NCBI RefSeq assembly: GCF_963921235.1
Contig: NC_086108.1
Span: forward strand, 40,612,001 to 40,676,000
Reading direction: 5' to 3'
DNA from: Mobula hypostoma
Lineage: Eukaryota
Length of the DNA stretch: 64,000 nucleotides
The notes beneath the pieces were generated by a model that ran no database searches, was not told where the DNA came from, and was given only the letters and a program-made list of their open reading frames with translations. The first letter of the stretch is position 1. Every line of letters starts with the position of its first letter. Positions 19,571 to 53,589 of this stretch are shown here, piece after piece. A program made the translations under genes and the position numbers.

Positions 19571-21107
19571 AATTATATTTGTATATCTGTGCACATGTAA
19601 TGCTACTGTGACACTGTATATACATTTAGGATTAATAAATTCTCTATCTAATTAGTTAAATGGAGATCACCTGTGTGTAGCCACAGTGTTTCAATTGATT
19701 GTAGTAAAAATATACCTGTATCTGGAAGGTCCAACTGCTGGTGTGTCAGTATCCTGACGAAAACCACACTTCAAGCAACTCCGCAAAAAGGTTCTTGAAA
19801 AGCACAAGTCAGCAGATGGGTATGAGAAAGTTTCCAAGTCTTTGAATATCCCTTGGAATACAGTTAAGTCAATCATCAAGAAATGGAAAGAATATGCCTA
19901 GAACAGGCCGTCCTCAAAAACTGAATGACCATGCAAGACCGAGACTAGTGAGGAAAGCCATCACACAGCTCTGGAGGAGTTACAAGCTTCAGTGGCTGAG
20001 ATGGGAGAGACTGTGCATACAACAACCGTTACCAAGTGCTTCACCAGTCGCAGCTTTATGGGAGAGTGGCAAAGAGGAAGCCATTATTGAAAAAAACTCA
20101 CATGAAATCTTGGCTAGAGTTTGCCAGAAAGCATATGGGAGACTCTGAAGTCAGCTGGAAGAAGGTTCTATGGTCTGATGAAACCAAAATTGAGCTTTTT
20201 TCCCTTCAGATTAAATGCTACGTTTGGTGTAAGCCAAACACAGCACATCATCAAAAACGCACCACATCTACCGTGAAGCATGGTGGTGATTGCATTATGC
20301 TGTGGAGATGCTTCATTGCAGCAGACAGTGGAAGGCTTGTGAAGGTAGAGGATAAAATGAATACAGCAAGATACAGGAAATCCTAAAACCTAATGCAGCT
20401 TGCAAGGGAACTGCGACTTGGGAGAAGATTTGTTTTCCAGCAAGATAATGACCCCAAGCATAAAGCCAAAGCTCCATAGTAGTGGCTTAAAAACAACAAA
20501 GTTAATGTCCTGGAGTTGTTACGTAAAAGTCCAGACCTCAATCCAACTGAGAAGTTGTGCCTGGACTTGAAAAGAGCTGTTCTCTCATGATCCCTATGCA
20601 TTCTGACAGAGCTTGAGCAGTTTTGTAAAGAAGAATGGGGAAAAATTGCAGTGTCCAGATGTGCAAAGTTGATAGAGACCTATCCACACAGACCCAAGGC
20701 AGTAATTGATGCCAAAGGTACATCTACTAAATACTGACTTGAATGAGGTGAATACTTATGCAATAAATTATTTTCTTTTTTTATATTTGTAATTAATTTA
20801 GATCACTTTGTAATGATCCATTTTTACTTTGACTTGAAAGAGTCTGTTTCTGTTGATCAGTGTCAAAAAAAGACAAATTACATCCATTGTGGTTCAATGT
20901 TTTAAAACAATAAAACATGAAAACTTACAAGGGGTGTGAATACTTTTTATAGGCATTGTATGCGTCATTCATCAAGTCAGGTCTCTGATCGGTGTGATTT
21001 GATGACAGGGATAGAGCTAAGTTTTAAAAAAAAGAAAATGTTTTAGACTTTCTCTTGTTCAAGATGATTATAGCTGGCATTTATATGACAGTTGTCTAGC
21101 ACTAATC

Positions 21108-22213
21108 ACTCATTAGCACTCAGATCTGCAGCTGGGTCTTCAACTTCCGCACAGACAAGACCCAGGCTGTAAAAATAGGGGACAAGCTCTCCTCTACAAT
21201 CACTCTGAGAACCGGTGCCCCACAAGGCTCTGTACTCAGCCACCTGCTGTACTCACTGTACACCTATGATTGTGTAGCCAAGTTTCCATCAAATTCAATA
21301 TATAAGTTTGCTGATGACATCACAATTGTAGGCCGTATCTCAGGTAATGATAAGTTTGAGTACAGAGTGGAAATTAAGAACCTGGTGGCATGGTGCGAAG
21401 ACAATAACCTATCCCTCAACATCAGCAAGACGAAGGTATTGGTTGTTGACTTCAGAAGGAGTAGCGGACCACATGACCCAATTTACATCAGTGGTGCGCA
21501 AGTGGAACAGGTCAAAAGCTTCAAGTTCCTCGGGGTCAATATCACAAATGACCTGACTTGGTCCAACCAAGCAGAGTCCACTGCCAAGAAGGCCCATCAG
21601 TGCCTTTACTTCCTGAGAAAGCTAAAGAAATTTGGTCTGTCCCCTAAAACCCTCACTAATTTTTATAGATGCACTGTAGAAAGTATTCTTCTAGGGTGCA
21701 TCACAACCTGGTGTGGAAGTTGTCCTGTCCAAGACTGAAAGAAGCTGCAGAAGATTGTGAACACAGCCCAGCACATCACACAAACCAATCTTACATCCTT
21801 GGACACACTTTACTCCACACGCTGTTGGAGCAGTGCTGCCAGGATAATCAAGGACATGACCCGTCCAGCCAACACACTTTTCATCCCTCTTCCCTCCGGG
21901 AGAAGGCTCAGGAGCTTGAAGGCTCGTATGGCCAGATTTGGGAACAGCTTCTTTCCAACTGTGATAAGACTGCTGAACGGATCCTGACCCGGATCTGGGC
22001 CGTACCCCCCAAATATCTGGACCTGCCTCTCTGTTTTTTTGCACTACCTTACTTTCCCTTTTCTATTTTCTATTTATGATTTATAATTTAAATTTTTACT
22101 ATATTATTATTGATTTGTACTCTAGGGAGCGGGAAGTGCAGAATCAGATATCACTGTGATGATTGTACGCTCTAGTATCAATTGTTTGGCGACAATAAAG
22201 CAAAGTAAAGTAA
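21108..22213 (+). mobile_element. Rex1/Babar LINE 3' fragment (relatively well preserved)
   Basis: TGAPQG, YKFADD, WCEDNNLSLNISKTKVLVVDFRR, FKFLGV and LPSGRRLRS motifs; tail aataaagcaaagtaaagtaa. Confidence 0.9.
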
Positions 22214-43003: not shown

Positions 43004-44511
43004 CAGTGCCTATAAAAAGTATTCACCCCCCCTCTCCCACCAGACATTTTAATGTTTTATTGTTTTACAACATTTTATCACAGTGGATTTAATTTGGCTT
43101 TTTTGATACTGATCAACAGAAAAAGACTCTTTTGTGTCAAAGTGAAAACAGATCTCGAACAAAGTGATCTAAATTAATTACACATATAAAACACAAAATA
43201 ATTGATTGCATAAGTAATCACCTCATTTAATATGACACACCAAATCATCACTGGTGCAGCCAACTGGTTTTAGAAGTCACATAATTAGTTAAATGGAAAT
43301 CTGTTTTTGGAAACGTGTGGGCAGTCGAGGCATTTCAATTGATTGTAGTAAAAATACACCTGTATCTGGAAGCTCCAACTGCTGGTGAGTCAGTATCCTG
43401 GCAAAAATTAGACTATGAACACAAAATAACACTCCAAGTCACTGAATATCCCTTGGAGTACGGTTAAGTCAATTATCAAGAAATGGAAAGAATATGGCAC
43501 CGCTGTAAATCTGCCTAGAGCAGGCCATCCTCAAAAACTGAGTGACCATGCAAGAAGGGGACTAGTGAGGGAGGCTACCAAGAGACCCATGACAACTCTG
43601 GAGGAGTTACAAGCTTCAATGGCTGAGATGGGAGAGGCTGTACATGCAATAATTGTTGCCTGGGTGCTTCACCAGTCGCAGCTTATGGGAGAGTGGCAAA
43701 GAGAAAGCCACTGTTGGAAAAAAAAAACTCACATGAAATCTCAGCTACAGTTTGCCAGAAGGCATGTGGGAGACTCTGAAGTCAGCTGGAAGAAGGTTCT
43801 ATGGTCTGATGAAACCAAAGTTGAGCTTTCTGGCCAACAGACTAAACACTATGTTAGATGTATGCCTAACACTGCACATCATCAAAAACACACCATCCCT
43901 ACTGTGAAGTATGGTGGTGGCTGTATCATGCTGTGGCATTGCTTCACTGTAGCAGGCCCCGGAAGACTAGTGGAAGGTAAAATTAATGCAGCAAAATAGA
44001 GGGAAATCCTGGAAGAAAACCTGATGCAGTCTGCAAGAGAACTGCGACTTGGGAGAAGATTTATTTTCCAAGTGTAAAGCCAAAGCTACATAGGAATGGC
44101 TAAAAAACAACAAAGTTTCAAGTCAAGTCCAGATCTCAATCCAATTGAGAACTTGTGGCCTTACTTGAAAAGGATTGTTCATGAGTGATCCCCATGCAAT
44201 CTGACAGAGCTTGAGCAGTTTTGTAAAGAAGAATGGGAAAAAATTGCAGTGTCCAGATGTGCAAAGCTGATAGAGATCTATCCACACAGACACAAGGCTG
44301 TAATTGCTGCCAAAGATGCATCTACTAAATACTGTCTTGAAGGGGGTGAGTACTTATGCAATAACTTTGGTGTTTTATATTTGAAATTAATTTAGATCAC
44401 TTTGTAGAGATTTATTTTCACTTTGACTTGAGAGTCTATTTTTGTTGATCAGTGTCAAAAAAGCCAAATTAGATCCACTATGATTCGGGTATTGTATTCT
44501 TATAGGCACTG
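43004..44511 (+). mobile_element. Tc1-family DNA transposon (copy 2), defective
   Basis: TA TSDs at 43002-3 and 44512-3. Termini cagtgcctataa / ttataggcactg. Transposase remnants KVLWSDETKVEL, VKYGGGCIMLW and SPDLNPIENLW with frameshifts and deletions. The right ITR is internally deleted. Confidence 0.95.
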
Positions 44512-46930: not shown

Positions 46931-47162
46931 AGGAAGCAAAAGAAATGTGATACTGTTTAGCTCATAGCTGTGAAATGAGTCAAAATGGTTAAATTGTTGA
47001 TTTTCTACATAATTATGTCTGTCTTCTCCACTCTGAAAAAGATCAGAATAATACATCTGAGAGTGGAGAGCGACCTTTTAAGCTGACCAACTTCCTTCCA
47101 TGCTCTCCACTCCTGCCAAATAAAATTATTTTGGAAATTCTGCAAGTTAAAATAAATGCATG

Positions 47163-47851
47163 TGTAAGGCGGTTTCGATTTTTATGCTTCTGCGGAGGCT
47201 AATTAAAATGGCGTCTTTGTTATGTTAATCTGGGGAATGCGGCTTTGTTGTGTTAAATACTGAGAAAGTTTGCGCTAACAGTTTGTTTTTGTTTTAGAGT
47301 CTGATAAGAGGGCACTATTAACCAATTGGGATAGTTGTTATGGTTTTGGTGTATTTGAAGATACTGTATGCGCGGGGTTTTGGGGCAGAAGGCGGGAGAG
47401 CGAGACAGAGGATGGACAAGGTGCTGTGAGTCCGCTAACGGGGTCAGACCCTGAGCGGGACGTTCAGTGAGGAGACGGAGACGGACTTGTGTCGAGCGTC
47501 TGGTCGACCACCGTTGTTGGTCCCAGGCAGCCGGTCGAAGTGGTCCGAGGGGTCGCAGGGTGAAGAAGAAGGTCCTTGAGCTCCAACGGTTTTGTGCACG
47601 AAGAGATTGAACTTTGATATATGTGGCGCCTTTTATTTTCCTTTTATATTTTATTCTTTTAATTATATAGTTCCAGTAATATCTATAAACTGTAAATCAT
47701 TTAATTGCATCTGGTGTATTGTGTTATTTGGGCAGGGTGGGGTACCTCACACAGCATCCACACAAACGAATTATCCAGTTTGGTGGGGCCGAGGCTGTTT
47801 CCCTAGATGACAGCGAGCCGAGCGACCCTGAGGGTGGCCGGGGGGGCTACA
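47163..47851 (+). repeat. 5' LTR
   Basis: tgtaaggcgg...ggggctaca; about 95-96% identical to the 3' LTR by manual comparison. Confidence 0.97.
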
Positions 47852-47854
47852 TTG

Positions 47855-47874
47855 TGTGAGGTTTGTCCGGGATT
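47855..47874 (+). promoter_or_regulatory. Degenerate primer-binding site (tRNA-Pro type)
   Basis: tgtgaggtttgtccgggatt versus canonical PBS-Pro tgggggctcgtccgggatt, immediately after the 5' LTR. Confidence 0.65.
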
Positions 47875-48099
47875 GAGTCTGCTGGTATGCTGTGTGGGTG
47901 CCCTGTTTAAATCTATAATGTGTGTCTCTGTGGGTTATTTGCTGGTGATTGCTGTATGCGTGGTGGGTGAGGTCTTTGTTCGAGTTCAGGGTGGCATTGA
48001 CAAGTTGGAGGTGGCACTCGGAGCTGCCCAAGCGGTTGGGAGAGAGAGGAAAGAGTGGTCTGATTTGGAGGTAGGGTCTGCGAATAAATGTTCTAGCTC

Positions 48100-48440
48100 T
48101 GGCAGGCTCCGCCTGGCACTTGGGATAGTGTCCACCCCACGTGTGAGACGTGGGCAGAGCGGATCACTCAGTTGTTAGATGAGTGGCAGTGCTCGGTTGA
48201 GGGAGAGCGACAGGAATTGGTTGAAAGTTTGAGTAGGCGGGCTGGTGACGGTATTAGAGCTGTCAGGTTCACTTACACCGTAGTGACAGCTGTCAGTTAT
48301 TTGAAAGAGGGGGGGAAAGTTTTCAGTGTGTCTTCTCTGGCGAGGAGGGCGGCTAAATTGCTTGCAGTGCCGGGGGATCATTTCAGGGGATCAGTTGTTC
48401 AGCTGATCAGAGAGGTGTTGGGAAACTTAGTGGACGGCCA
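48100..48440 (+). pseudogene. gag: PNMA-like Gypsy gag (capsid) remnant, frameshifted
   Basis: RLRLALGIVSTP, then in a shifted frame CETWAERITQLLDEWQCSVEGERQELVESLSRRAGDGIRAVR. Resembles the RLRxFSG..PTP.GEE.FE.W.EQ...LDEWQCS....Q...ESL.G.A pattern of PNMA-like Gag. Confidence 0.8.
48420..48426 (+). promoter_or_regulatory. -1 ribosomal frameshift slippery heptamer G GGA AAC
   Basis: The gag frame reads TTG GGA AAC. A -1 shift gives GGG AAA CTT AGT GGA CGG CCA GTG..., which is open into the pol ORF at 48441. Confidence 0.8.
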
Positions 48441-49300
48441 GTGGGGGAATGGCTTGGGTTCTCTGGGGAAGCACATTCCCAGCAATGTACCAATGAACTT
48501 CCGAAAGGAAAAGACCCGATTCCTAAAGGCTTAGAGGGGCTACGCCCCAGGGTGTCACTATGGATAGAGGAAAGCGATGCTAAAGCTATCCTCGACCCCG
48601 GGGCACAGATCAAGTTGTTGGACAGTTCGTTTTACAACCGGTGTCTGAAGCATTTATCCTTGACAACTGCAAGGGCACCGGAGACTTTGGGTACTAGTGG
48701 CAGTAGTTATCCAGAAGACTATGATTGGTTAATGACCCTGGAGTTCATGGAGGCATTTTCTGGGCACCCAGCGTGTCGAGTTGCTTCTGAGCACGTGTGT
48801 AGCAGCCTTGAGCCAGTACCGAATTTAAACGAGACCCAGCGGTGGTACGGCCTGGGGAAAGTAGCTGAGGGTGAGACCCTCTTAGTAGATGCTCCGAACT
48901 ACCACGAGGGAGGGGAGTTGACCGCTGAAGACACCTCAGTGAGAGAGAGGTCGCGGCAACTGGACCCTGGCGGCATGGAAGATGGAGGCAGCGTGTGTGC
49001 GGATTATGTGATGTGGTTTAATGTGCTGCATCTGAGGGGTGGATGTTGCCAGATCCTGAGGAGTGCGGCTGTTGAGCTGAAGATGGCCTTTACTAGTTCC
49101 CTAGGATTCTTCCGATCCGAAAAGATACCCAAGGGCATATCCAGAGCCCCTGCATCCTTCCCGCGGGGCATGAGGAAAACCATGGGGGAAATGAAGGAGT
49201 GTGGAGTTTTGACGTATGTGGATGACCGCCTAGAGCTTGGATTCGCCTGGGGGGACTATGAGGCGAGGCAAGTGGCTGAGCCCGGGCGACTGAAGCGAAG
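48441..49300 (+). pseudogene. pol: Gypsy pol remnant: aspartic protease (LDPGAQ) and deleted RT (YVDD)
   Basis: AILDPGAQIKLL at about 48585-48620 (DTG changed to DPG). CADY..WFNVLHLRGG..KMAF..LGFF..IPKGISRAPASF...LTYVDD (YVDD at 49215-49226). The first RT catalytic Asp is replaced by His. Confidence 0.9.
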
Positions 49301-49334
49301 TGTCAAATGTGGAGGAGTTTTTGGCCGGAGGTGT

Positions 49335-50036
49335 TTGGTGCAATGTGAGGAAAATGACCCGACATACCAGTTGAACTTCCTGGTGTTGGGACAGACGGTG
49401 GTGGACTGGGGCATGGAAACCCAGGTCGTCAATCTGAATGAGACACAGGGAAGAGAGGGGATTTGCACCGCACTGCGGTCATGTACTGATGAATTAATCC
49501 AGCGAGAAGAAACAATGACCCACCTTGGAAGGGATCAGCAGAAACTCAAGACGTCCATTCAGAACAGATTGTAAGACTTGCAAGTTGGAGAAGATCATGG
49601 AAGTGTTCTGACTAAGGTCAACAGAAAACCAAGAGCACAGGGAGGGGAGTTTGACTACACTCCCGAGGAGGTAAAGAAATGGAGGACAGATCTCGGAAAG
49701 GGGAGGCGGACGCTTGAAAGGAACCTGAAGATGACTATCGCGAGTTTAAATGAAGTGGAAAAACTGAACGTTGACCTGGAAGACGTCCTCAGGAAGAAAC
49801 AACCGGAGGCTGAACATTCTTTAACTGCTGCTTTTCAGGTCAGGGTGGAAGAAGCTGGTGGGGTAACTGCGTCCCAGATTGAGATGGCCAGGAACCCTGA
49901 GTCAGAACTGCGGAGGCTGTGGCGAGAGTTGAAGGAGTCCCCGAAGAAGCTGACGTCTCGACTGCAGGAGGCTGAAGGGGTAGCCCCGGCTAAATGTTTC
50001 AGTTTGGAGAAACTCAAACAGCAGCTACCGATCGAT
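49335..50036 (+). pseudogene. Captured, processed, internally deleted sarcomeric myosin heavy chain rod fragment (MYH16-like) in the pol frame
   Basis: L*DLQVGED..VLTK (cf. LDDLQAEEDKVNxLTK); [29 protein letters not shown] (cf. recalled MYH16 DLKMTIDNLNEMERSKLDLEEVVKKR); [15 protein letters not shown] (cf. RLEEAGGATSxQIEM); [11 protein letters not shown]...AKCFSLEK (cf. KKLAQRLQEAE...AKCSSLEK). Confidence 0.9.
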
Positions 50037-50525
50037 GGAATGAGGAAGGATACGGATTCGAAGGATGATGTGCTGCACATGTGGAACATGCTGCCTTTCG
50101 CTAACTTCCCCGTGACTGAGGAAGAGACTTTTGGCCCTTCTCCCACTGAGTCAGGTGTAGCGGGGAGAGCTAGCTGTGGGCAGTCTGAGTTGCGGCAGGA
50201 TTGGGAAGGAGGAGAGGCGGGGCCCCGGACACTGGACTGGGGGGGTCCGAGCTGTAGTGGTGGCCTGAGTGGGAGAGGAGTTGGCAAGCAGGCCCGAGGT
50301 ATCCCTAGTAGTGTCTGAGCCTTTTGGGTTTAGGTGAGGGGGTACGGAGGTCTCAGAGGGTTAAGAAGCTCCCAGATAGGTTGGCCTATTTAGCGCCTGT
50401 GGGACGGGAGTAAGGTCCACTGTTTGGGGAGCACTGTCACTGTGTGTATCTGTGTATGTGTGTGTTGTGTGTCTGTAGGACTGGGTGGCGAGTTATTTAG
50501 GAGTCATGAGGACATGACTTTATTT

Positions 50526-50538
50526 GGTGGGGGGAGAG
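50526..50538 (+). promoter_or_regulatory. Polypurine tract
   Basis: ggtggggggagag immediately upstream of the 3' LTR. Confidence 0.85.
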
Positions 50539-51233
50539 TGTAAGGGGGTTTCGATTTTTATGTTACTGCAGAAGCTAATTAAAATGGCGTCTTCGTTATG
50601 TTAATCTGGGGAATGCGGCTTTGTTGTGTTAAACACCGAGAAAGTTTGCGCATAAAACAGTTTGTTTTTGCTTTAGAGTCTGATAAGGGGGTGCTATTAA
50701 CCAATTGGGATAGTTGTTATGGTTTTGGTGTATTTGAAGATACTGTATGCGCGGGGTTTTGGGGCAGAAGGCGGGAGAGCGAGGCAGAGGATGGACGAGG
50801 TGCTGTAAGTCCGCTAACGGGGTCGGACCCCGAGCGGGACGTTCGGTGAGGAGACGGAGATGGACTCGTGTGAAGCGTCTGGTCGACCACCGTTGTTGGT
50901 CCCAGGCAGCCGGTCGAGGTGGTCCGAGGGGTCGCAGGGTGAAGAAGAAGGTCCTTGAGCTCCAACGGTTTTGTGCACGAAGAGATTGAACTTTGATATA
51001 TGTGGCGCCTTTTATTTTCCTTTTATATTTTATTCTCTTTTAATTATATAGTTCCAGTAATATCTATAAACTGTAAATCATTTAATTGCATCTGGTGTAT
51101 TGTGTTATTTGGGCAGGGTGGGGTACCTCACACAGCATCCACACAAACGAATTATCCAGTTTGGCGGGGCCGAGGCTGTTTCCCTAGACGACAGCGAGCC
51201 GAGCGACCCTGAGGGTGGCCAGTGGGGGCTACA
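50539..51233 (+). repeat. 3' LTR
   Basis: tgtaaggggg...ggggctaca followed by TSD catg. Confidence 0.97.
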
Positions 51234-53589
51234 CATGTAAAATAGTCAAAAAATAATTACACCAAGAGATGGCACACTGAACTGGAAGAATACTGCCCAT
51301 AAAAAGCCTGTACATTAACTATCCTGTTCAACACTGAGGAAATGTGGAGAAAATTTTCATCAATAATCTTTAAGTGGTAGAAATCATCCAACTTATTCTC
51401 AGGGAATGGCACTGTAATGGAATTAGAAAGAGGTGTGCTGACCAATTTTGAGAAGGAACATAACTTCAAAGTACAAAGAATTATTTTTTGACTGGAGTCA
51501 TTTCTCAAGTGGATTAGCTGTCCATCATTAATTGAACCCCAGGCTCTCTCACTTTGCAGCAGCCTGCTTCCTTTGATCTGAGAGATTAAACTAATTGCAA
51601 CTGTAAAATGTTGCAGAGTGCTTGCAATGCTTGAACATGGAAATCTGTATTGAAATTAATCCTGTCAAGATGCATGATAAAACTGGAACAAACTCAAACT
51701 GCAGATCGAGACAGCAATTGGACCTACTAATTGAGTATCATTGAAATGATGCAACCATCCAACTTTGTGTCACAATATTTTCTTTGTAACATAATGCTGA
51801 CTTTCTCACAGATGAAAAGCTACCTATCAAGTAGTGCAAATCTAAGATTTGATGTTGTACTTCATTCTGGTGACATTGATTCATCTTCTAAAAGTGTTTT
51901 ACATGTTATTCAGTTTGTTTCAACAGAAAAGACTGCTTCTCACAATAATATTTTTTTTAAATCAAAGCAGTTGTGATAAATAAAGGTATTCTGCAAAATG
52001 AAACTATAATCCTACTCATTATAAGGGATTTTGGTTCAGTAAGTTAAATGTTCCACGTTGCTTTTGAAATTCTCTGGATGTTTCTTTTCCAATCATCGTA
52101 AACAGAACGATCGTAACAACTTAAATGTGATATGCTTTCATCCTCTACTGTGAAGTAACACAGTGCCAGACTCCATGTTTACTCAGGAAAGGGGGAGTAA
52201 TCTAAGTCCCGGATGTCACCTTCACTGTAAAATATGAACTCAGCTACCACCATGTGCACCTTTGACTTGTAAATTTCTGTGCTGCATCAAGGATATACTA
52301 GCTGAGTGCAGGTTTCAAAAATCACATAAGAGTTGAAAATTGCATTAGTCAGCATTACTTTTGAATAATTTGGTTCAGCATTCTAATTGCACATTTACTG
52401 GTTTATGATTAGAAATACAAATCTACCTATGTATAACTCAACAGCAGCAAGCTGGCAAAATGAGAGAGCTTTCCTTTAAAGATGTACACTCTTTCCTAAA
52501 TCCCAACCTCCCAAAGTTATTGCACAACACTACAGGAATGAACTGCTCTTCCAAGTCCCACGCTGACTGCCCTTATGGGCATGATGAAAGCATTTATTCC
52601 TGCCAACTGTATCAAGCCTTAGGGTTGTGCCCACAGAGGGACAGGATGCTGGTTTAAAGCTGTTCAAACCTTCTTTCAGGCAACAGAGGGATTATGCCAA
52701 CTCACAAGATAAATTTGTTTCCAGAAAATGGTAAACCTCCACATCCCTGTTGAAATGCTATTGGGTTGGCATACCCAGAGCTGTAACTTGTTTTTTTTTA
52801 AACATGTTAATCTTGAAAGCCAATACAATGAAATGTTAAATTCACCCCACCATGCTATGAGGGGAACATTGGACCCTGGCAGATTAGTTGGTGCAGTAAG
52901 CCTGTTTCATTATTCAATAATACCATGGCTAATACGTTATTTAATCCAGGTATTCACTATGTCTACATTATCACTGATTGAAAATCTATAAAATTCAGAG
53001 ATAAAACGAGCAAATGCCCTGGCATTATCTGCCATCCACAGAAGAGATTTGTAAACCTCTCTCTCTCTCTGGTATTCATTCCTCCCATCACTCCTGAAAA
53101 GCAGCTCCCAATTAATAGACATTTGCACTACTCCTAAATATCTCAACCGGCAGAAATATTTTTTTCTCTTTCTTCCCTCATATTATAATAAAAATCAATT
53201 AGATCTCCCCCCCCCCCAGCTACTAAACTGCAGCAAATAGCTTGTGAAATTGCAAAATTTAACTTTTGCGAGTGTTGGTATTATTCTATTAAATCTCTGA
53301 GGTAGTGCAGGATAGAATAATGTATCCTTAAGGTCTGATGCCCAGAACTGGTCTCAGAAGTCCTTTACATCTGTTGCACATTAAAGACAATTCTTTAATT
53401 TCAAGTTATTCATTATTACAGCCATATTTTCTAACATTTGCACATCCGGTACTTTTTTTTTTGCTCTTGACATTTCAAATGGAGTAAGTTCTTCCTAGGA
53501 TATCAAATTAAAAGAGGTCAAATATTTATTTCTTTCTATCATAGGAAGCTAGTTCAACAATTAAGTCTACGTCAACTCACTGAACACTG

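Follow-up and report, generated by a model that had tools for sequence, protein, structure and literature searches.

A structurally complete long terminal repeat (LTR) retrotransposon carrying codons from a host myosin rod was identified in a 64,000-nucleotide stretch of the Mobula hypostoma genome (NCBI RefSeq assembly GCF_963921235.1, contig NC_086108.1, positions 40,612,001 to 40,676,000 of the forward strand; hereafter the window). The element occupies window positions 47163-51233, with two LTRs, TG..CA ends, CATG on both sides and a polypurine tract, and its 2.7-kb interior runs in the order gag remnant, protease, partial reverse transcriptase (RT), ribonuclease H (RNase H) scrap, myosin-rod codons and tail. 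The myosin-rod-derived module (~49410-50036, + strand) is in frame with pol and comprises ~208 codons, as delimited by comparison with less decayed relatives. An original prediction, made from the letters of the window without database searches, had placed the myosin at 49335-50036; the myosin is real and collinear, but the start of that span takes in ~25 codons of an RNase H remnant. Ancient capture of a host mRNA by a Gypsy-type element, followed by a non-autonomous radiation, is the best explanation overall and, in our judgement, very probably the correct one. The capture is far older than the window family and is shared, in much diverged form, with stingrays.

Myosin homology and amplification of the chimera

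The case for homology was built on less decayed relatives of the window copy and on direct comparison with myosins. P0030, the open reading frame (ORF) of copy L041 from a less decayed subfamily, was scored against a database of 5.8 billion proteins and gave 4826 matches at E≤0.001 among 8000 candidates. Its best matches were full-length myosins (E=6.8e-40, 50–57% identity, 83–93% of the query covered), and nearly all of the first ~100 were named myosin-16 or MYH16, their sources being teleosts through to mammals together with a shark, a skate and a chimaera. The remaining classes of sarcomeric myosin first appeared near E=2e-28. The motif LKMTI..L.E.E....DLE.V is present in the MYH16 fragment P0017, which is 79% identical to coelacanth myosin-16, and is absent from MYH7. 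For the window family, the ORF without its stop was taken from copy L003 (P0001) and scored against 1.84 billion representative proteins. The 25 matches at E≤0.001 consisted of diverged element ORFs (46–94% identity) and 11 proteins with Pfam Myosin_tail_1, one of them a 1943-amino-acid (aa) lungfish myosin at E=1.2e-4.

In the window copy itself the module is composed of four collinear blocks with internal deletions. A phmmer search with this copy against Protein Data Bank (PDB) sequences produced 13 matches at E≤10, the top nine of which were all myosin II heavy chains (MYH7, MYH4, insect Mhc and one MYH7 rod fragment; best E=0.0023). The matches fell in three collinear blocks, at MYH7 residues 1009-1090, ~1145-1184 and ~1385-1421, and the myosin rod motifs picked out in the original prediction lie within them. 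Within the same genome, a sarcomeric myosin heavy-chain (MYH) gene on contig C68 at 15.61 Mb gave three collinear tblastn matches (E=8e-7, 0.005 and 0.008). With settings unchanged, no match below E=0.76 came from three myosin II genes of non-muscle type (on C45, on C36 and at 25.4 Mb on C68) or from 12 further myosin-tail loci. Generic coiled-coil similarity, the outcome that the original prediction had named as fatal to it, does not describe this combination of significant collinear myosin matches and a non-muscle control without any. The similarity is true myosin homology of the MYH16 type; the original call of MYH16 is upheld by the best matches of P0030, by the motif in P0017 and by the phylogeny.

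A maximum-likelihood tree was computed from 31 rows, made up of 13 element or Narcine sequences, 9 MYH16 and 9 other myosins. The Narcine sequence is from Narcine bancroftii, where protein P0018 is annotated 'myosin-6-like isoform X4' and its isoform P0151 'putative uncharacterized protein MYH16 isoform X2'. All 12 element modules and the Narcine protein formed one clade (support 100/99), which nested with MYH16 and lamprey MYH16-like sequences (100/100) to the exclusion of MYH7-, MYH2- and MYH15-type myosins, and within the clade the Narcine gene was sister to all element modules (97/90). On this tree the module belongs to the MYH16 lineage, and the approximately unbiased (AU) test leaves room for more than one position there.

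The copies of the chimera were surveyed with a 1.1-kb DNA query spanning both junctions of the module, and 40 of 1889 first-look candidates were scored. Every scored copy was 95–100% identical to the query and kept both junctions, with 36 matches at full length, three ending at 1098 and one at 1087. The seven other copies that were aligned matched over the whole interior and the 3′ LTR (7/7, 94.2–95.5%; one with an internal deletion), and the 3′ flanks were unrelated in eight of eight copies. Annotated proteins 94–96% identical occur in Mobula birostris, and diverged relatives are annotated in M. hypostoma, Hypanus sabinus and Hemitrygon akajei. The chimera has moved as one piece and makes up a high-copy, non-autonomous family; candidate copies of the window subfamily number well over a thousand. 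Both unit transposition and non-autonomous spread had been anticipated in the original prediction, and the comparison of junctions among copies that it suggested was carried out in this genome.

Probable donor gene, intron loss and proposed history of the capture

The closest relative of the element modules is a short, headless rod gene. The Narcine protein P0018 has its start at the myosin neck and shares only 49% identity with skate MYH16, and is thus not canonical MYH16; no isoform of this rod type longer than 408 aa was present among the database matches of P0030. The N-terminal part of the Narcine gene is common to the teleost protein P0154, aligns to the myosin neck and is carried by no element. 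Residues 1-36, 26-80, 78-111 and 112-164 of P0018 match M. hypostoma contig C68 at 14,401,226, 14,480,487, 14,564,082 and 14,612,355, respectively (72, 76, 62 and 87% identity), in order and on one strand, as exon-sized pieces 48–84 kb apart. We considered P0018 as a possible element copy and rejected this, given the collinear exon-sized matches on C68 and the N-terminal part shared with P0154. A genome search with P0018 gave 1156 candidates, and the 150 that were scored (37–87% identity) were mostly intron-free stretches of 60–130 residues lying in open frames of 100–700 aa.

Two features of C68 are recorded here as observations in their own right. The interval at ~14,401,226-14,612,513 (+) appears to hold a spliced headless myosin-rod gene, the orthologue of P0018/P0151, seemingly without a motor domain. 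Further along, at 15.30–15.90 Mb, recurring matches to one set of head and tail segments mark eight or more sarcomeric myosin heavy-chain genes arranged in tandem on both strands, at intervals of ~65–95 kb.

Among the better preserved modules, identity was 68–73% to P0151, 40–57% to canonical MYH16 and 38–50% to shark MYH7-like; the corresponding values for the window family were 47%, 31–35% and 27%. From these comparisons the donor was most likely an ancestor of the headless MYH16-lineage rod gene. The original prediction had named MYH16 as the source, which holds for the lineage but not for the gene, since the closest relative is the short headless rod gene and not canonical muscle MYH16.

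Loss of introns was also predicted, and the element copies do cross exon boundaries of both the C68 gene and sarcomeric MYH genes without introns. In copies C18:141119136 and C21:20317896, P0018 residues 60-196 or 60-190 are encoded without a break (432 and 390 nucleotides), across boundaries that in the C68 gene are separated by 84 and 48 kb. Element copies thus span three exon boundaries of that gene, the structure of which was taken from match tables. In a sarcomeric MYH gene the region equivalent to the module is made up of at least six exons, with boundaries near residues 987, 1042, 1090, 1139, 1250 and 1295 (numbering of shark MYH7-like P0137), and the window module is uninterrupted across the equivalents of several of them. 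An intron-free module fits an RNA intermediate, and template switching may have been the route of capture. As a separate observation, locus L009 (C18:48745314-48746731, - strand) and loci L010-L012 contain an intron-free myosin II tail of non-muscle type with several stops, contiguous over Pfam positions 514-993 in L009; these look like processed pseudogenes with no relation to the element family.

Other readings of these data were weighed. Canonical muscle MYH16, probably the gene on C36 at 112.72 Mb, could have been the donor, with the headless gene similar to the elements through shared fast evolution or itself secondary; such a donor would agree with the best full-length matches, which are canonical MYH16 proteins, and with the presence in the elements of rod parts lying past the point where the annotated headless isoforms stop. 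The AU test (LG+G4) likewise does not reject an element clade placed with cartilaginous-fish MYH16 (p=0.074). We nevertheless hold this donor to be unlikely in view of the far higher identity of the modules to P0151 than to canonical MYH16, the derived residues that they share with P0151 in the DLQ..GE..KL..QRGE stretch, and the position of the Narcine gene as sister to all element modules. The direction of transfer could also be reversed, with the ray headless rod gene built from element copies by domestication. The order, single strand and 48–84 kb spacing of the gene pieces argue against this, as do the 112-164 piece, which is exon-sized and sited about where sarcomeric MYH genes have an exon, and the neck-aligned N-terminal part, which is found in the teleost protein P0154 and in no element. 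Although the gene products are short, with Myosin_tail_1 scores under the Pfam cut-off (19.6–28.9 bits for P0151 and P0018), and residues 112-164 are about equally similar to element copies and to the C68 exon, we regard domestication in this direction as very improbable. Chance coiled-coil resemblance or an assembly chimera, to which the missing Pfam myosin match of the window copy might be taken to point, is so improbable that it can be set aside: a sister subfamily matches MYH16 at the E-value given above, the myosin blocks of the window copy are collinear, and an assembly chimera is excluded by the shared junctions, the differing flanks and the family's presence among annotated proteins of other species.

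Several results weigh against capture from an ancestor of the headless rod gene as we have set it out. The check that was originally proposed, a Pfam Myosin_tail_1 match in the window copy, failed (no match to the window ORF at E≤1), the better preserved P0030 had no match to this profile at E≤0.01, and the myosin signal of the window copy by itself is only marginally significant. We treat the Pfam failure as a limit of what profile filters can recover from a decayed coiled coil, since P0030, too, is missed by Pfam and yet matches MYH16 at E=6.8e-40. On the tree the stem of the element clade is long (0.49) and joins outside crown jawed-vertebrate MYH16, so that long-branch effects are possible, and the AU result above belongs with this point. 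The exon structure of the C68 gene is known from match tables alone. The annotated Narcine isoforms (225 and 234 aa) stop short of the downstream EEAGG..QIEM and KC.SLEK blocks that elements carry, so that the donor must have comprised more than these gene models show. Lastly, no integrase-bearing partner with matching LTRs or gag was tied to the family among the 150 scored of 188,433 first-look candidates from a search with an RT-RNase H query. The scored candidates include relatives at 61–73% identity with open frames of 1000–1714 aa, so that potential helpers are abundant, and copying of the family probably depends on helpers of this kind.

Comparison among subfamilies bears on how the capture from the headless rod lineage may have proceeded. 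In copy L041 the myosin module is preceded by a complete RNase H domain (Pfam RT_RNaseH, PF17917, E=2.7e-11), and the rod runs from ~residue 951 to 1107 and continues with a 1390-1425 block. The EEAGG..QIEM block is retained in L045 and P0007, the rod of P0013 extends upstream to ~residue 925, and in L048 the middle of RT is joined directly to the middle of the rod. In the Hypanus ORF P0003 (729 aa) a single frame extends from gag through to the tail. In all subfamilies the same rod end (..KC.SLEK.KQQL..) is fused to the same tail. Because L041 keeps a full RNase H before the module, the capture replaced integrase, and the window lineage lost most of its RNase H, RT and gag later; the replacement of both RNase H and integrase in the original prediction stands for integrase only. 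The window subfamily is young and among the most deleted. The simplest reading of these comparisons would be that at least ~500 rod codons were captured once, downstream of RNase H, and that different internal parts were deleted afterwards.

We propose that, in an ancestor of (at least) the myliobatiform rays, a Ty3/Gypsy-type element would have taken up a spliced MYH16-lineage transcript during reverse transcription, the donor being most likely the ancestor of the headless rod gene still on contig C68. At least ~500 rod codons, from near the rod start to ~residue 1425 (cardiac-myosin numbering), would have been fused in frame behind RNase H, in the place where integrase normally sits, leaving a hybrid without integrase. 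This hybrid would have been non-autonomous, with transcription driven by its LTRs and copying performed by the enzymes of related autonomous Gypsy elements, and may then have split into many subfamilies, each deleting different parts of gag, pol and the rod.

Structure of the window copy

All features of the window copy are on the + strand. The 5′ LTR (47163-47851, TG...CA) and the 3′ LTR (50539-51233) are direct repeats in register, both starting with TGTAAGG and ending with GGCTACA. In a global alignment 662 of 689 aligned bases are identical (96.1%) with 8 gap columns; the differences comprise 23 transitions and 4 transversions, 15 of the 27 lie in CpG context, and the Kimura two-parameter (K2P) distance is 0.041. 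The target-site duplication CATG is found at 47159-47162 and as the same four bases at 51234-51237, and a polypurine tract, GGTGGGGGGAGAG (50526-50538), abuts the 3′ LTR. The original description of two LTRs, a CATG duplication and a polypurine tract is accordingly accurate. Directly 3′ of the 5′ LTR is a putative primer-binding region (47852-47880), which opens with TTG, not TGG, and is retained with small changes in copies L003, L004 and L007.

The interior order also agrees with the original description, as judged from ORFs, motifs and Pfam matches. The gag remnant (48097-48531) is the N-terminal, PNMA-like part only (Pfam PNMA, E=5.6e-6, 26.3 bits, cut-off 25), and in this copy it lies in another frame than the rest; in copy L008 and in the Hypanus protein P0003 gag and pol share one frame. 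The second frame is open over 48357-49571 and 49575-50315, a total of 652 codons with one stop at 49572-49574. This stop lies inside the module and is private to the window copy, being absent from copies L003, L006 and L008. The deleted pol (48357-49409) contains a protease-like DPGA motif in the open frame (48588-48608), RT motifs including YVDD (49077-49226; RVT_1 E=0.28 in the window copy and E=1.3e-6 in relative P0008) and the RNase H scrap (49359-49391), which was aligned with the ORFs of L041 and L047, where Pfam RT_RNaseH gives the value cited above for L041. A reading of 49359-49391 as RT was rejected, as better preserved relatives show the start of RNase H there.

The module is followed by a tail common to all subfamilies (50037-50383), kept in this place in L042, L045, P0005, P0007 and P0011. 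Its RRSQR..PDRL motif (50342-50383, in a different frame from the module) may be the C-terminus of pol, and the tail is possibly the C-terminus of integrase. The domain order gag-protease-RT-RNase H-integrase is incomplete, integrase having been seen neither in the window copy nor in any relative read. The window element is a non-autonomous Ty3/Gypsy-type derivative and not a full member of that group. With gag, RT and RNase H fragmentary and no integrase it cannot move alone, and this copy is dead, with gag and pol in different frames, one in-frame stop and no working RT, RNase H or integrase.

Other mobile-element sequences were also noted. In the window, a 210-aa open frame at 21106-21735 (+) has the C-terminal half of RVT_1 (E=3.8e-13) and an ALKBH8_N match and is likely a remnant of a long interspersed nuclear element (LINE), and a 189-aa open frame at 43430-43996 (+) has DNA-binding domains of a Tc1/mariner-type transposase (HTH_Tnp_Tc3_2, E=1.7e-9). 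Elsewhere, the element copy L049 (C21:110733158-110736541) is interrupted by, or adjoins, a LINE-type reverse transcriptase on the opposite strand, with ORFs of 254 and 266 aa.

Open frame of the module, known systems and significance

The module may have been kept, or kept translatable, because it was helpful to the non-autonomous element, either through coiled-coil multimerisation of the fusion protein or through an open frame that protects the RNA or favours its own packaging. We consider this unlikely, although there is evidence on its side. By hand count, 116 of the 150 scored module matches are without a stop; open frames of 200–724 aa occur among the scored matches, and the 729-aa ORF from gag to tail is annotated in Hypanus. 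Summed over its internal branches, the element clade has ~0.76 changes per site at the amino-acid level, and no stop is shared by any subfamily. With a nonsense-to-missense ratio of 0.064–0.085 for these codons, 6–8% of non-synonymous changes being stops, one would expect ~8 fixed stops over ~150 codons under neutrality. These open frames would point to selection for an open frame in replicating lineages. Heptad periodicity is above shuffled sequences in most modules (for the window family 0.41 versus 0.27 in shuffles, with 0 of 500 as high; real myosins 0.47–0.49), yet the signal is weak in P0011 (85 of 500 shuffles as high) and in L044 and L047 (23–24 of 500), and residual ancestry could account for what remains. 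The ratio of nonsynonymous to synonymous change (dN/dS) between subfamilies was 0.31–0.75 in frame, with a median of 0.57, against out-of-frame medians of 0.63 and 0.86 (15 pairs), and with these controls amino-acid constraint was not upheld as a reading of the in-frame median. Subfamilies have deleted different rod blocks, which argues against a need for any one block. An AlphaFold monomer prediction was poor (mean predicted local distance difference test, pLDDT, 56.6), only helix 30-93 being partly confident, and a prediction of two copies of the window module in complex (score 0.01, mark 0.32) speaks neither for nor against dimerisation. That an enzyme-less retroelement lineage kept a host myosin coiled coil as a translated part of its fusion protein through the stingray and manta radiation is, in our view, doubtful.

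Acutely transforming retroviruses carry gag-onc fusions, in which a spliced host gene has been captured and replication genes have been lost, and they need a helper. The ray element is similar in its captured spliced host gene, in-frame fusion, lost replication genes and probable helper dependence; unlike these viruses it is germline, endogenous and derived from a structural protein, and it amplifies as a genomic repeat and not as an infectious agent, with no sign of a cellular effect. LARD and TRIM are non-autonomous LTR elements mobilised in trans. Like these and MaLR, the ray family keeps LTRs, would keep priming sites and packaging, would receive its enzymes in trans and could outnumber its helpers. 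The interiors of MaLR, LARD and TRIM elements are non-coding or degenerate, whereas the ray element carries a long, mostly host-derived frame.

Tan et al. 2016 (Genome Res 26:1663, PMC5131818) give cases of LTR-mediated retroposition from fly, mosquito, zebrafish, chicken and mammals, offer template switching guided by microsimilarity as the explanation, suggest that the whole chimeric locus is able to act as a non-autonomous element, and mention MaLR as mobilised in trans by MERVL. As in those chimeras, an intron-free piece of host mRNA lies in the ray family between discontinuous stretches of LTR-retrotransposon sequence; the host piece in those chimeras is often in frame and co-transcribed. 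The cases described there are young and single- or few-copy, with two fly retrocopies having more than one insertion site, whereas the ray chimera is ancient, occurs in several ray genera and has many subfamilies, one of them with the 1889 first-look candidates noted above. The ray junctions are ancient and have been reshaped by later deletions. Maize Bs1 (Elrouby and Bureau 2001, 2010, as cited in PMC5131818) is an LTR retrotransposon with pieces of host exons; it is described as having 1–5 copies and pieces of three genes, in contrast to the one donor, thousands of candidates and long history of the ray family. The ray family is a case of LTR-mediated gene capture, a known mechanism, and is unusual for how old it is, for the number of its copies and the radiation of its subfamilies, for a module lying in frame within pol and for a frame kept open so long. 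No description of a myosin-carrying ray family was found in the open-access literature searched.

The family has a direct consequence for annotation, in that public ray gene models are copies of the element or contain pieces of it. The models affected include 'myosin-16-like', 'putative uncharacterized protein MYH16' and 'myosin heavy chain, striated muscle-like', as well as 'transmembrane protein 192 isoform X1' and 'succinate dehydrogenase assembly factor 3 isoform X1'. The last two (SDHAF3 in the latter case), both from Hypanus sabinus, and an uncharacterised Hemitrygon protein (P0003, P0009 and P0019) contain pieces of the element family and are probably annotation artefacts or exonised copies. 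Counts of ray myosin genes will be inflated unless the element family is masked.

If the coiled coil was indeed kept as a working part of the fusion protein, a transposon would have domesticated a host structural domain, the reverse of the usual direction, and an open frame or coiled coil would be needed for copying by helpers. Gene capture by animal LTR elements has been documented mainly as young, single-copy events. In the ray family the later course of a vertebrate chimera of this kind can be followed: a long non-autonomous life, massive amplification, stepwise deletion and an open frame maintained despite amino-acid drift.

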